A DNA stretch of 40,302 nucleotides, taken from a virus. Lineage: Duplodnaviria; Heunggongvirae; Uroviricota; Caudoviricetes. The translations under genes and the position numbers were made by a program. The notes under the pieces are model-generated. The model was not told the origin of the DNA and searched no databases. It worked only from the letters and a program-made list of their open reading frames with translations. The first letter of the stretch is position 1. Every line of letters starts with the position of its first letter. Positions 5,701 through 8,945 of the stretch are shown piece after piece. The stretch lies in the IMG/VR virus record IMGVR_UViG_2654588006_000003. One strand, 5' to 3'.

Positions 5701-5866
5701 GCTGACCTCATTTCCCCTTAACGCTGGGGTAGCGGAACTGTTTGCTGAGAACACCGTGCGGTGTGTTGATGCAAACAAGATTAGCCATGACTAACATATC
5801 GGTCAAGTGATTTTGTATGCTATAGCTAACATAATTGATGTGGTAAAAGATAACTCATTGATGATG
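5701..5866 (-). promoter_or_regulatory. Putative dicB-operon promoter/operator region between dicA and ydfA
   Basis: Intergenic; contains tagctaac and atgactaaca motifs that recur in the dicA-dicC intergenic palindromes, consistent with DicA operator half-sites. No promoter boxes assigned. Confidence 0.4.
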
Positions 5867-6274
5867 TTATCTTTTATTTGTCCGCTGACGGGCTTTTAGT
5901 AATTCTTCAAAGAGTTTATTGAAGTTTTTTACTCGAGCTCGCATTTCGGCGAGCTGGGTATCCTGTTCTGATTCTGGCAGTGCATTAAACAGCTCAAGGA
6001 GCTCTAGTTCTTTGGGGGATAAGGCAACTGGCTTCTCAACAGGTGGTGTTGGTTGCTTGTCTTCATCGCCAAATAGAATCCATGTTGGTGAGCATTGCAA
6101 TACTTTGCTGAGGGCAAAAAGGTTCTTCCCTGTAGGTTCACTATCACCCCGTTCCCATTGTGATACAGACACATGGGAGATTTTCAGGGCTTTAGCAAGA
6201 GACCTTTGGGTGTGTTTGAGGTTTTTCCGACGATACCTGATGCGTTCGCCGATAGTTAAATTTTTTGTTTCCAT
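5867..6274 (-). CDS. dicA: DicA, cI-like HTH repressor of the dicB operon (135 aa)
   Basis: ORF track; N-terminal HTH (QRSLAKALKISHVSVSQWERG); divergent from dicC. Confidence 0.9.
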   Translation of the reverse strand: METKNLTIGERIRYRRKNLKHTQRSLAKALKISHVSVSQWERGDSEPTGKNLFALSKVLQCSPTWILFGDEDKQPTPPVEKPVALSPKELELLELFNALPESEQDTQLAEMRARVKNFNKLFEELLKARQRTNKR

Positions 6275-6357
6275 AGTTAGCTAATGCTAAATCGTATTGA
6301 CTATGTTTTTGTTAACATCTATCTTGTTAGTTATGACTAACAATAAAGGTGTTTTAA
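6275..6357. promoter_or_regulatory. Divergent dicA/dicC promoter-operator region
   Basis: 83-bp intergenic region with palindromes ttagctaa (6277..6284) and tgttagttatgactaaca (6325..6342). Confidence 0.55.
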
Positions 6358-6588
6358 ATGCTTAAAACTGACGCTCTTTTGTATTTCGGTTCAAAAACAA
6401 AACTTGCACAAGCAGCAGGTATTCGTTTGGCTTCGCTTTATAGCTGGAAAGGGGATTTAGTTCCCGAAGGTCGCGCGATGCGTCTACAGGAGGCATCTGG
6501 CGGGGAGCTTCAGTATGATCCCAAAGTTTATGATGAATATCGTAAGACGAAGCGGGCGGGGCGGTTGAACAATGAAAATCACTCCTGA
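6358..6588 (+). CDS. dicC: DicC, Cro-like regulator (76 aa)
   Basis: ORF track; divergent from dicA; sequence recognised as DicC. Confidence 0.9.
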   Translation: MLKTDALLYFGSKTKLAQAAGIRLASLYSWKGDLVPEGRAMRLQEASGGELQYDPKVYDEYRKTKRAGRLNNENHS

Positions 6589-7093
6589 ACAGGCTCGTGA
6601 GGCTCTGGATGCCTGGATATGTCGACCAGGAATGACACAGGAGCAGGCGACGATATTAATCACTGAAGCATTCTGGGCTTTGAAAGAGCGCCCGAACATC
6701 GATGTTCAGCGTGTCACATATGAAGGTGGCGCGATTGATCAGCGAGCGCTTGGCGTTAATCGAGTGAAGATATTTGAACGCTGGAAGGCTATCGACACCA
6801 GGGATAAGCGTGAAAAGTTCACGGCGCTAGTGCCTGCAATTATGGAGGCTATCCGGATTAATGATTTCAGGTTGTATCGTGAAATTACTGACGGAAAAAG
6901 CATCACGTGCATGATCGCCGGGTTAAACAAAGAATATGGCGATGTGGTGGAGTCCGGACTGCTTTTTGCTGATCCTGCCGTAGTGGATCGTGAAACTGAC
7001 GAACTTATAGAAAAAGCAATTGCTTTCAAACTTGCGTATCGACAGCAATACCAACAAAAAGCTGGATGGAATTATGAGCCTTCTTTTTGCTGA
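6572..7093 (+). CDS. YdaT-like protein (173 aa), probable regulator/toxin-family protein in CII-equivalent position
   Basis: ORF overlapping dicC stop by 17 nt; position downstream of the Cro-like gene mirrors ydaS-ydaT of Rac-type prophages. Family assignment from memory. Confidence 0.55.
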   Translation: MKITPEQAREALDAWICRPGMTQEQATILITEAFWALKERPNIDVQRVTYEGGAIDQRALGVNRVKIFERWKAIDTRDKREKFTALVPAIMEAIRINDFRLYREITDGKSITCMIAGLNKEYGDVVESGLLFADPAVVDRETDELIEKAIAFKLAYRQQYQQKAGWNYEPSFC

Positions 7094-8039
7094 ACGCCCA
7101 CTGGTTATAAACACGCAGCTGGCAATGAAAATTGGCTTAAACGAAGCCATTGTTTTGCAACAACTGCACTACTGGTTGAGAGATACCAACTCCGGCATGG
7201 AATGTGATGGTGTTCGCTGGATTTATAACACAACGGAACAATGGCTGGAACAGTTCCCATTCTGGTCAGAGTCAACGTTAAAGCGCGCGTTTGCAAGTCT
7301 GAAAACGCTGGGGCTTTTGCGTTGTGAAAAGCTCAATAAATCAAAGCGCGATATGACCAATTTCTACACGATCAACTATGGGAGCGAGCTTTTAGATGGT
7401 GGCAAATTGAGCGAATCCATCGGTTCAAAATGCGCCGCTCCATCAGGTCAAAATGACACGATGGAAGAGGTCAAAATGAAACGCTCCATTGGTTCAAAAC
7501 GACCCAATGTCATCGGGTCAAAATGGCCTGATGATCTTACAGAGAATACAACAGAGATTACTACAGAGAATAAAAACACTTTTCGTCCGGAAGCTTCGCA
7601 ACCGGACCCGCAGACGACTGAACAGGATTTTTTAACCCGGAACTCCGACGCGGTTGTGTTTAGTGCGAAAAAACGCCAGTGGGGTAGCAGGGAGGATTTG
7701 GCGTGTGCGCAGTGGATCTGGGGGCGGATCGTGGGTCTCTACGAACAGGCAGCCAGTGATGATGGCGAGATCATGCGACCAAAAGAGCCTAACTGGACTG
7801 CCTGGGCCAATGACGTGCGCACAATGCGGATGCTGGATGGCAGAAGCCACAGACAAATTTGCGAAATGTTTGGTCGGGTTCAGCGAGATCCATTCTGGGT
7901 AAAAAACATCATGAGCCCGTCAAAGCTCCGCGAAAAATGGGACGAACTGGTCATCCGCCTGGGACGTTCACCTGTACAGCGTTGTGTTAATCATATTTCT
8001 GAACCGGATACAGAAATTCCGCCTGGTTTCAGAGGATAA
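7074..8039 (+). CDS. Putative phage replication initiation protein (N-terminal wHTH, C-terminal DnaT-like region)
   Basis: ORF track 7020..8039; start placed at ATG 7074 (MSLLFAERPL) with upstream GGATGGA; contains embedded iteron-like repeats and an AT-rich tract, as in lambda O/ori. Confidence 0.6.
   Translation: MSLLFAERPLVINTQLAMKIGLNEAIVLQQLHYWLRDTNSGMECDGVRWIYNTTEQWLEQFPFWSESTLKRAFASLKTLGLLRCEKLNKSKRDMTNFYTINYGSELLDGGKLSESIGSKCAAPSGQNDTMEEVKMKRSIGSKRPNVIGSKWPDDLTENTTEITTENKNTFRPEASQPDPQTTEQDFLTRNSDAVVFSAKKRQWGSREDLACAQWIWGRIVGLYEQAASDDGEIMRPKEPNWTAWANDVRTMRMLDGRSHRQICEMFGRVQRDPFWVKNIMSPSKLREKWDELVIRLGRSPVQRCVNHISEPDTEIPPGFRG
7415..7600 (+). repeat. Iteron-like direct repeats plus AT-rich tract (candidate replication origin) inside the replication gene
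   Basis: Five copies of (a/c/t)ggt(t)caaaa(t/c)g at about 7421, 7445, 7468, 7490 and 7515 (23-24 bp spacing), then AT-rich repeats acagagaata/acagagatta (7540..7575). Confidence 0.5.
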
Positions 8040-8079
8040 GTGTTGATTTCAGGTCATGAGGTAATTTTAAGGGGGACTT

Positions 8080-8502
8080 GTGGCAAAAGTTTTTACACAA
8101 GAAGAGCGGGAAAAAATTAAATGGCAGGTGGTGGAACTCGTGCGCCAGAGCGGCCGTGAGACGTTACGGCAACTGGAAGCTAAAACAGGTGCGACTAGAT
8201 ATCTGATGAGCGTTCTTGCCAGAGAGCTGGTAGCCAGTGGCGATGTATACAACTCCGGCTACGGGTTATTCCCCTCTGAACAGGCGCGTAAGGACTGGCA
8301 AAACGCCCGCAAAAAACTCTCGAGGGCAAAGGTGAAGAAACCTGCTGTGGTTGATCCGGACCTTATCTGGTCATCACCTGACGGAGAAATACGTCGCTAC
8401 GACAGTCGCCTAAACATAATCTGTCGCGAGTGCCGGAAGAGCGAAGTTATGCAGCGCATACTGGCTTTCTATCAGGGTAATTTTCAGGACGTGGCGCAGT
8501 GA
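8080..8502 (+). CDS. Hypothetical protein (140 aa)
   Basis: GTG start preceded by AAGGGGGA; stop overlaps the GTG start of the downstream methyltransferase (GTGA); contains CRECRK motif. No family recognised. Confidence 0.5.
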   Translation: MAKVFTQEEREKIKWQVVELVRQSGRETLRQLEAKTGATRYLMSVLARELVASGDVYNSGYGLFPSEQARKDWQNARKKLSRAKVKKPAVVDPDLIWSSPDGEIRRYDSRLNIICRECRKSEVMQRILAFYQGNFQDVAQ

Positions 8503-8945
8503 GTGCACCGGCAACCATTCTTGATATGTGCTGTGGCAGCCGCATGTTCTGGTTCGATAAGTCTGACGAACGGGCGATATTCAGCGATATCAGAAAAGAA
8601 GGATACACATTACGCAATGGGAGACGCTTGATTATCAGCCCTGACATTATCGCAGATTTTCGTGCATTATCATTTGCAGACGCATCTTTTTCGATGGTTG
8701 TATTAGACCCTCCGCATCTTGAGAGTGTTGGTGATAACGCCTGGATGGGAAAGAAATATGGACGGCTGAATAAAGATGCCTGGCGTGATGATTCGCGACA
8801 GAGATTTAAAGAAGCCTTTCGGGTGTTGAGGCCGCACGGCGTTCTGATTTTTTAATGGAATGAAACGCAAATACCGGTAAGCCAGATTCTGGCACTGACA
8901 GACAGAAAACCTGTTATCTGTCAACGAACAGGGAAAAAACGATAA
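8499..8945 (+). pseudogene. DNA methyltransferase (amino-MTase motifs) interrupted by in-frame TAA at 8853..8855
   Basis: SAM-binding-like motif ILDMCCGS and catalytic-like VLDPPH in the 118-aa ORF 8499..8855; the same frame stays open for 29 more codons after the TAA (WNETQIPVSQILALTDRKPVICQRTGKKR) to 8945. Confidence 0.5.

Follow-up and report, generated by a model that had tools for sequence, protein, structure and literature searches.

A probable lambda-type replication origin inside the initiator gene of a Qin/mEp460-like Escherichia coli prophage

The closest described counterpart of the element treated here is the origin of bacteriophage lambda, whose annotated sequence (NC_001416) places four iterons (TCCCTCAAAACGAGGGA, spaced 20, 24 and 23 bp) in the middle of gene O, followed by an A-rich tract and then by an inverted repeat (TTCGTCAGAGAATTCTGGCGAA). 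The layout of this origin, in-frame deletions within it, iteron numbers that vary among Stx phages, and the binding of O to the AT-rich region in single-stranded form have been described (PMC6022878, PMC7466680). We have analysed IMG/VR virus record IMGVR_UViG_2654588006_000003 (Caudoviricetes), a stretch of 40,302 nt that is called the window throughout and that represents a lambdoid, Qin/mEp460-like prophage of E. coli. Positions 7394-7607 of the window very probably form the vegetative replication origin of this prophage, which would be built like ori-lambda and lie inside the prophage's own initiator gene. The element is of an ordinary kind, a lambdoid origin inside an initiator gene, and thus an expected arrangement in an uncharacterised member of the family. 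A first-pass annotation had placed a candidate cis-acting origin at 7415-7600, and the element has turned out to reach slightly beyond both of these limits, from about 7394 to 7607.

The likeness to ori-lambda inside gene O, which had already been proposed in that annotation, is borne out by the annotated order of elements in NC_001416, and extends to the spacing, the central TCAAAAYG and the place between two protein domains. Lambda, other lambdoid phages and Stx phages share with the window a set of 4-6 repeats of ~19-25 bp, spaced 20-24 bp, that show hyphenated dyad symmetry and have the A-tract TCAAAA(C/T)G at their centre. As in lambda, beside the iterons comes a low-GC tract and then an inverted repeat, the two initiators have homologous C-terminal domains, the gene comes after cro and cII in the pR operon, and the origin appears to double as a recombination junction, with junctions annotated at the equivalent place in NC_001416. 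The window iterons have arms of the type CATCnGG...CCnGATG, whereas those of lambda read TCCCTC...GAGGGA, and they number five or six instead of four. The low-GC tract consists of ordered, conserved 12-mers where lambda has an A-run, and is less extreme in its AT content. The window protein carries a DnaT-like tail and an N-domain that is not detectably similar to that of lambda O, and no P gene comes after it.

The core of the element is an iteron array on the plus strand, in which GKTCAAAAYG occurs exactly at 7423, 7446, 7469, 7492 and 7516, with spacings of 23/23/23/24 bp (Table 1). Only one further match has been found in the 40.3-kb window, and shuffled sequences have given a mean of 0.80 matches, with 0 of 100 shuffles reaching six. 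The repeat-finder check that had been suggested in the first-pass annotation has independently returned the same 23/23/23/24 family. Its description of five near-identical repeats at 23-24 bp spacing therefore stands, but the literal consensus GGTYCAAAAYG fits three copies, as copies 2 and 3 are without the extra T. With one mismatch allowed, this consensus gives 5 matches against 3.5 expected window-wide, which is not significant because the pattern is mis-specified; GKTCAAAAYG fits all five copies. At the position of the degenerate sixth repeat, iteron 0, relatives carry a good iteron (GGTCAAAGTGA) and hence chains of six copies. AAAA is central in iterons 1-5 and phased at 23-24 bp, with AAATT in iteron 0, and the array may be intrinsically bent. 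A DnaA box (TTWTNCACA) is absent from 7000-8090, the nearest one being located at 8091. Natural deletions of the array have also been observed: the E. coli proteins P0030-P0034 (290 aa) show an in-frame deletion of 31 aa, i.e., 93 nt or four iteron periods (window 7423-7515), by which iteron 1 would be fused to iteron 5. These alleles resemble the in-frame origin deletions of lambda that have been obtained by selection, and they probably mark replication-dead prophages.

All repeats lie inside the initiator reading frame (7020/7074-8039), between the N- and C-domains, and thus in the linker to which they had been assigned at first reading. This location raises the question of whether they are a feature of the protein, namely a low-complexity linker (IGSK..., TENTTEITTEN) that is under selection as a peptide and has no cis-acting role as DNA. 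Three of the five iterons do encode (I)GSK, the 12-mers that come after them are in frame and encode T-E-x-T repeats, and no part of the protein is less conserved than the linker. However, the iterons are read in all three frames, with GSK encoded by iterons 1, 4 and 5, SGQN by iteron 2 and EVKM by iteron 3, so that the 23-bp period is not a peptide period; the SIGSK...IGSK coding noted earlier applies to iterons 1, 4 and 5 and not to iterons 2 and 3. In a codon alignment of eleven homologous genes, the third-position identity of the N-domain is 0.43-0.6 at an amino-acid identity of 0.75-1.0, whereas in 7386-7600 the third-position identity rises to 0.7-0.98 while the amino-acid identity drops down to 0.6-0.8, i.e., synonymous positions are better conserved here than the amino acids. 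For the 12-mer tract the third-position identity amounts to 0.88-0.98. When the T-E-x-T repeats were located at the protein level in 74 loci picked by protein similarity, all 100 Thr codons were found to be ACA (background 145/680) and all 93 Glu codons GAG (background 405/896), so these codons are frozen whatever the codon usage of the host. Furthermore, the iteron sequence tracks the DNA-binding helix of the protein, as described below. Based on the three-frame iterons, the synonymous-site conservation and the frozen Thr and Glu codons, the constraint acts on DNA rather than on the peptide, and we attach next to no probability to a purely peptide-level origin of the repeats. In one homologous locus from Shigella flexneri SFBU0723 (L037, 3001-3523), the gene is apparently frameshifted at the iteron/12-mer boundary (CCTGATAAAATCTACAGAG vs CCTGATGATCTTACAGAG), and the inverted repeat stands in a frame that differs from every other locus. 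Owing to these two features, the locus is probably a pseudogene in which the origin DNA has been retained.

Conservation of the array has been followed with an N-domain scan restricted to one genome per species, which has yielded 80 loci from Enterobacterales, Pseudomonadales, Burkholderiales, Bacillales, Lactobacillales and Clostridia. In 49 of these, the longest 20-26-bp periodic 10-mer chain of the ~6.5-kb locus is confined to +250 to +560 as counted from the gene start, which makes up ~5% of the locus, and 38 of the 49 chains have at least 4 copies; the remaining loci comprise 18 ties and 13 chains outside the interval. Across the loci the period of ~23 bp and the core nnnCA-WWW-TGnnn are kept while the arms vary, and this variation follows the protein. 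Among 83 loci, the iteron arms (half-sites) vary in step with residue 3 of the heptad that comes after the conserved FPFW motif: helices of the type xxS-T occur with GGTCA..TGACC, xxD-T with GGGCA..TGC(A/C)C and xxK-T with GG(A/T)CA..TGTCC, and SKNTIIR has been found with ACCCA..TGGGT in one Moraxella and one Bacillus locus. The heptad corresponds to the start of the third helix in the AlphaFold model (pLDDT 70), and this third helix of the winged-helix domain is the predicted recognition helix (aa 66-78, ESTLKRAFASLKT). Such covariation is the pattern expected if the N-domain reads the iterons. It may provide a recognition code, one residue of the recognition helix versus the base beside the CA core, for a large family of initiators without a model in Pfam. 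The repeats are accordingly conserved in homologous initiator genes with regard to synonymous sites, position (49/80 loci) and helix tracking, and it is the ori-lambda layout, the positional conservation and the helix tracking that speak for the cis-acting origin put forward in the first-pass annotation.

The second part of the element is a tract of 12-bp repeats, in which ACAGAGAWTA occurs at 7539, 7551 and 7563 (0.07 matches expected; 0 of 100 shuffles reached four). With a GC content of 0.32 compared to 0.48 for the window, 7536-7579 has less GC than any other 44-mer of the gene, and its stability puts it among the lowest 2% of the 40-mers in the window. The acagagaata repeats that had been described as AT-rich are therefore present in three copies, but their AT-richness is moderate, and what characterises the tract is rather an array of 12-mers conserved in sequence. 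In 60 of 83 homologous loci (61 of 84 including the window), Firmicutes among them, the iterons are followed by two or more copies of ACAGAGAnTACn, and an exact-pattern scan of viral contigs has detected the 12-mers in at least 120 loci. In nearly all of the 120 matches listed, the motif is located mid-gene (~aa 135-200) in a protein of 250-370 aa, and 95 of them have a periodic chain of three or more copies immediately upstream. A blastn search with the 87-nt tract has returned 102 phage records, nearly all under coding sequences annotated as replication proteins, from Bacillus, Staphylococcus, Geobacillus, Acinetobacter, Klebsiella, Erwinia and Stx phages; in HannyBb both the 12-mer tract and the inverted repeat are unchanged.

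The proteins that bear the 12-mers are more diverse than the tract itself. Their N-domains form three or more subfamilies at E<1e-10, which are probably remote homologues rather than unrelated folds, because single-linkage clustering at E<1e-3 merges almost all of them, and their C-domain types include lambda-O-like, PF09524 and DnaD-like DnaB_2. In E. coli A34 (L086, 1054-1995), an N-domain without BLAST similarity to that of the window has been found together with its own iterons and the same 12-mers, followed by DnaC-like and DnaB-like genes. The viral loci L087, L092, L130 and L135 likewise combine N-domains without BLAST similarity and different iterons with the same ACAGAGAnTAC 12-mers at the same position in the gene, and Pfam has no model for the N-domain of any of these five loci. 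The conservation of the tract as DNA across phyla, from Proteobacteria to Firmicutes, and across initiator subfamilies is the unexpected part of this origin; a description of the 12-mer motif has not been found in the literature searched, which left most older work out of reach. Considering that the tract spans at least three N-domain subfamilies and several C-domain types in Enterobacterales, Acinetobacter, Moraxella, Bacillus, Staphylococcus, Lactobacillaceae and Clostridia, we tentatively suggest, as a possibility with the odds somewhat against it, that the repeats are a sequence-specific origin element common to a large superfamily of phage and prophage initiators, which would be recognised in open or single-stranded form and serve as a universal unwinding or loading site. 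The DnaD/DnaT-like C-terminal modules or a conserved host protein (helicase or primase) may then be the recogniser, and such a site would be analogous to the DnaA-trios and to the 13-mers of RK2 and oriC. It is pure speculation that the 12-mers might relate to the start sites of primase (bottom-strand CTG, top-strand TTA/CTA). The tract offers a precise candidate for a sequence-specific unwinding element kept across phyla.

The end of the 12-mer tract is also the place where different versions of the gene are joined. In E. coli genomes, megablast matches cover nt 124-553 or nt 554-1020 of the O gene, and one match spans the 12-mer tract alone (nt 514-550). As the breakpoints fall at nt 553/554, corresponding to window 7572/7573, the end of the tract is most readily read as a recombination joint between N- and C-terminal modules. 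One may postulate on this basis that the array is a recombination linker or module-exchange hotspot, or otherwise a set of protein-binding sites for O autoregulation or copy control (handcuffing), and not an initiation site. The exact coincidence of the breakpoints with the tract end, the joining of many different N- and C-domains by the same 12-mers and the recombination junctions annotated inside the lambda ori all agree with a linker. The roles of junction and origin are nevertheless compatible, both being true in lambda, and a pure linker leaves unexplained why five or six phased dyad sites stand beside the least stable DNA of the gene and why iterons, low-GC tract and inverted repeat come in an order common to a proven origin. 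No other candidate origin has been seen in the replication region, though none was looked for. We therefore consider a linker or regulatory array without initiation function very unlikely and retain the interpretation as an origin.

With lower confidence, the inverted repeat to the right of the 12-mers may be counted as part of the origin. For the ten proposed pairs, 87.5% of the cells are paired in 24 homologues, compared to 17-38% when the partner columns are slid, and one pair covaries (GC 17, UA 4, CG 3, none unpaired) while the amino acids change on both sides (A..Q, S..K, P..E). In the window itself, the stem is weakened by two A.A mismatches (-6.8 kcal/mol, z -1.7). A reading of the region as structured RNA has been dropped because Rfam has given no match in 7000-8100. 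In two loci, from Edwardsiella (L017) and Scandinavium (L044), a lambda-type inverted repeat (TCGTCGCGGAATTCTGGCGAATCC) has been found ~40 nt after the 12-mers, together with an N-domain, iterons and 12-mers of the window type. This combination may be regarded as another sign of an origin assembled from exchangeable left and right halves.

The putative initiator has proved to be a member of PHROG family phrog_391 (replication initiation O-like, 1.3e-91), its counterpart in Escherichia phage PhiR42_1 is annotated as 'DNA replication protein O', and its C-terminal domain is 34% identical to that of lambda O over 148 aa (BLASTP, E 1e-26), all of which agrees with the first assignment. Pfam has no family for the protein at E<=0.01 or at E<=1, and NCBIfam has none either. 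The AlphaFold2 model of the N-domain (pLDDT 70) has the topology H-H-b-H-H-b-b, and its top fold matches in the Protein Data Bank are the DNA-bound RepA_N plasmid initiators 5kbj, 4pql and 4pt7, which are weak (Foldseek E 0.01, TM 0.58). The region homologous to lambda O is presumed to be the helicase-recruitment module. The protein ends in a tail (VQRCVNHISEPDTEIPPGFRG) that is nearly identical to the final 21 residues of E. coli DnaT; phmmer has aligned it with the PDB chains 2ru8, 6aep and 9zbt_D at E 0.013-0.044, and it corresponds to positions 160-179 of the 179 positions of NCBIfam DnaT. The ending IP(A/P)GFRG is also found on homologues with other C-domain types (PF09524 and others), and the tail thus looks like a short linear motif common to phage initiators and the host restart protein. 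On single-stranded DNA, the C-domain of DnaT assembles into filaments; it also docks on PriA, and DnaT is the presumed recruiter of DnaB-DnaC (PMC13377028); the role of its extreme C-terminal tail is not stated there.

Taken together, initiation may be envisaged as follows. The five or six iterons, dyad-symmetric around an A-tract (nnnCA-AAA-TGnnn) and with a period of 23 bp, would be bound by dimers of the O-like protein via the N-terminal winged-helix domain, as we infer from the covariation of recognition helix and iteron half-site. By analogy with lambda, a bent or wrapped nucleoprotein complex would melt the adjacent low-GC tract of three ACAGAGAnTACn repeats, probably aided by pR-driven transcription through the region. 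The lambda-O-like C-terminal domain and the DnaT-like tail would then bring in the replicative helicase. This would have to be host DnaB, since the prophage encodes no homologue of P, DnaC or DnaB, and it would probably arrive as DnaB-DnaC, possibly via contacts of the restart primosome. For the same reason, helicase recruitment is the weakest step of the scheme. The IPxGFRG tail may allow loader-less phages to plug into host DnaT-/PriA-dependent or DnaB-DnaC loading, and gives a clue to the recruitment of the host helicase by lambdoid phages that have no P, DnaC or DnaB. The loader-less arrangement is also present in mEp460-type phages (mEp460_4F5), HannyBb and a Klebsiella-type relative, and the annotation of PhiR42_1 shows no loader from O to Q. 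The same initiator must therefore exist both with and without a loader, as a relative in E. coli 07_3636 has a DnaC-like gene and the others have none.

Several observations weigh against the interpretation as a functional lambda-type origin. The dyad symmetry of iterons 0, 1 and 3 is poor (6/12), the tract is AT-rich only to the moderate extent given above (GC 0.32), and a less stable 40-mer exists in 5801-8900. The covariation counts have been taken from related sequences and do not represent independent events. The fold match of the N-domain to known initiators is weak, and neither BLASTP nor Pfam has detected a relation to the N-domain of lambda O, the BLASTP alignment being confined to aa 147-294. 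After the initiator, genes for P, DnaC or DnaB have not been found, the next genes being DUF977/LygF and a methyltransferase, whereas in E. coli 07_3636 a DnaC-like 'ATP-binding protein' is encoded after the 88%-identical gene, which leaves the helicase-loading step unexplained. A literature search has found no experiment on the element or a close relative, and nothing relevant for mEp460, PhiR42, HannyBb or the sequences. The missing loader also bears on the idea that the element is an origin by descent that has become inactive in a decaying Qin-like prophage, where helicase and loader genes are lacking and an IS element and apparently truncated genes lie downstream. IS transposase genes and a short methyltransferase ORF downstream, the loader gene of the 88%-identical relative and the natural iteron-deletion alleles in E. 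coli (P0030) could all be taken as signs of such decay. On the other hand, the window has every iteron, the 12-mers and an O reading frame in intact form, 5800-8900 is 99.9% identical to a phage genome deposited as complete (PhiR42_1), and mEp460-type phages and HannyBb are equally loader-less. An inactive origin is accordingly judged improbable, and an active one of the lambda type preferred.

The surroundings of the gene (Table 1) are those of an E. coli prophage. Region 7020-8039 is 100% identical to the chromosome of E. coli ATCC 8739, and the identity of 5800-8900 to PhiR42_1, which derives from ECOR13, has been mentioned; with this query, HannyBb and mEp460_ev081, both deposited as phage genomes, match at 96-97% DNA identity in the initiator region, which forms part of it. 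On account of the flanking genes dicC/cro, ydfA-D, relBE, flxA, rem, ydfU and Q, the prophage can be identified as an apparently intact relative of the defective Qin prophage. Transcription through the origin probably starts at the pR-like promoter upstream of cro-cII-O, and by analogy such transcription may have a role in origin activation; the promoter scan has found none inside the origin. The initiator ATG at 7074 sits 20 nt within the end of the cII/YdaT-like ORF (window 7074-7093), an overlap that suggests translational coupling of the two. The methyltransferase ORF covers only positions 52-165 of a 229-position PHROG profile and appears to lack both its ends; a few kb downstream, PhiR42_1 carries IS transposase genes. 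By megablast, the initiator gene is matched in 2796 of 5426 complete E. coli genomes, 1748 of which contain most of it. An origin annotation would therefore apply to a prophage module that is present in about half of the complete E. coli genomes and is intact in the window, and practical uses may be seen in predicting phage replicon incompatibility, in origin-decoy defences and in minimal phage-derived replicons.

Table 1. Coordinates of the proposed origin, its initiator gene and the neighbouring features in the window
Feature	Position	Strand	Remarks
cI-like repressor	5867-6274	-	local gene order
pR-like sigma-70 promoter, TTGACT-17-TATCTT	6297..6325	+	consensus scan, 9/12 matches; upstream of cro-cII-O
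Cro/DicC	6358-6588		local gene order
cII/YdaT-like ORF	6572-7093		local gene order
O-like replication initiator gene	7074..8039	+	321 aa from ATG 7074; mechanical ORF from TTG 7020; contains the whole origin
N-terminal winged-helix domain	7074..7385	+	aa 1-104, AlphaFold2 model; presumed iteron-binding module
Iteron 0, degenerate sixth repeat, GGTGGCAAATTGAGCG	7394..7416	+	core CAAATTG 7403-7409, in register 23 bp upstream of iteron 1; dyad 6/12
Iteron 1, CCATCGGTTCAAAATGCGCCGCT	7417..7439	+	dyad 6/12
Iteron 2, CCATCAGGTCAAAATGACACGAT	7440..7462	+	dyad 9/12; different frame, SGQN
Iteron 3, GGAAGAGGTCAAAATGAAACGCT	7463..7485	+	dyad 6/12; third frame, EVKM
Iteron 4, CCATTGGTTCAAAACGACCCAATG	7486..7509	+	dyad 8/12
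Iteron 5, TCATCGGGTCAAAATGGCCTGATGA	7510..7534	+	dyad 9/12; adjoins the 12-mer tract
Lambda O-homologous region, linker and C-terminal domain	7512..7955	+	window aa 147-294 vs lambda O aa 135-270, BLASTP
Low-GC tract, three 12-bp repeats ACAGAGAATACA / ACAGAGATTACT / ACAGAGAATAAA	7536..7579	+	presumed DNA-unwinding element and mosaic junction of N- and C-terminal modules
Inverted repeat GTCCGG-AAGCTTCGCAA-CCGGAC (N11)	7585..7607	.	right of the 12-mers, at the position of the lambda inverted repeat TTCGTCAGAGAATTCTGGCGAA
DnaT-like C-terminal tail, VQRCVNHISEPDTEIPPGFRG	7974..8036	+	last 21 aa of the initiator, phmmer
DUF977/LygF	8080-8502		directly after the initiator gene
Short methyltransferase ORF	8499-8855		118 aa

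Beyond lambda itself, the window fits the classical picture of lambdoid initiators, in which an origin-specific N-module and a partner-specific C-module are joined with the origin at their junction. Gene 18 of P22 and phage L and the genes of other lambdoid initiators are likewise described as encoding divergent initiators, each with distinct iterons of its own in the coding sequence, and the origins of P22 and L have routinely been inferred from repeats within gene 18 by sequence inspection (PMC8022706). These phages differ in that a DnaB-type helicase (gp12) is encoded beside the initiator gene. A comparable architecture is known from the RepA_N theta plasmids of the pSK41 type, which share the winged-helix N-domain and the repeats placed centrally within the rep gene. 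There, the N-domain binds the Rep boxes, the origin-encoded central linker is dispensable as protein, and the C-domain contacts host replication proteins (PMC5703833). The fold match to these initiators is weak, however, the window protein has no match to Pfam RepA_N (PF06970), and RepA_N replicons are plasmids with antisense-RNA copy control. The iteron plasmids of the Rep_3, RepE and TrfA types are more distant, as their iterons lie outside the rep gene and their origins contain DnaA boxes, whereas the iterons of the window are intragenic and are not accompanied by a DnaA box.

With regard to the 12-mers, the nearest parallels are the 13-mers and DnaA-trios of oriC, the 13-mers of RK2 oriV and the single-stranded DNA sites of RepE and TrfA, all of which are short ordered repeats in an unwinding region beside the double-strand sites of an initiator. 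In these unwinding elements the sequence matters and not the AT content alone, and sequence-specific recognition of the repeats is established for DnaA, RctB, TrfA and RepE (PMC10797057). Given that these initiators recognise the repeats of their unwinding elements, a comparable sequence-specific role for the 12-mers is plausible. The window repeat nevertheless differs in being 12 bp long, purine-rich on the coding strand and translated, and, while the known repeats differ between replicons, 12-mers of the window type have been kept across phyla and across initiator subfamilies.

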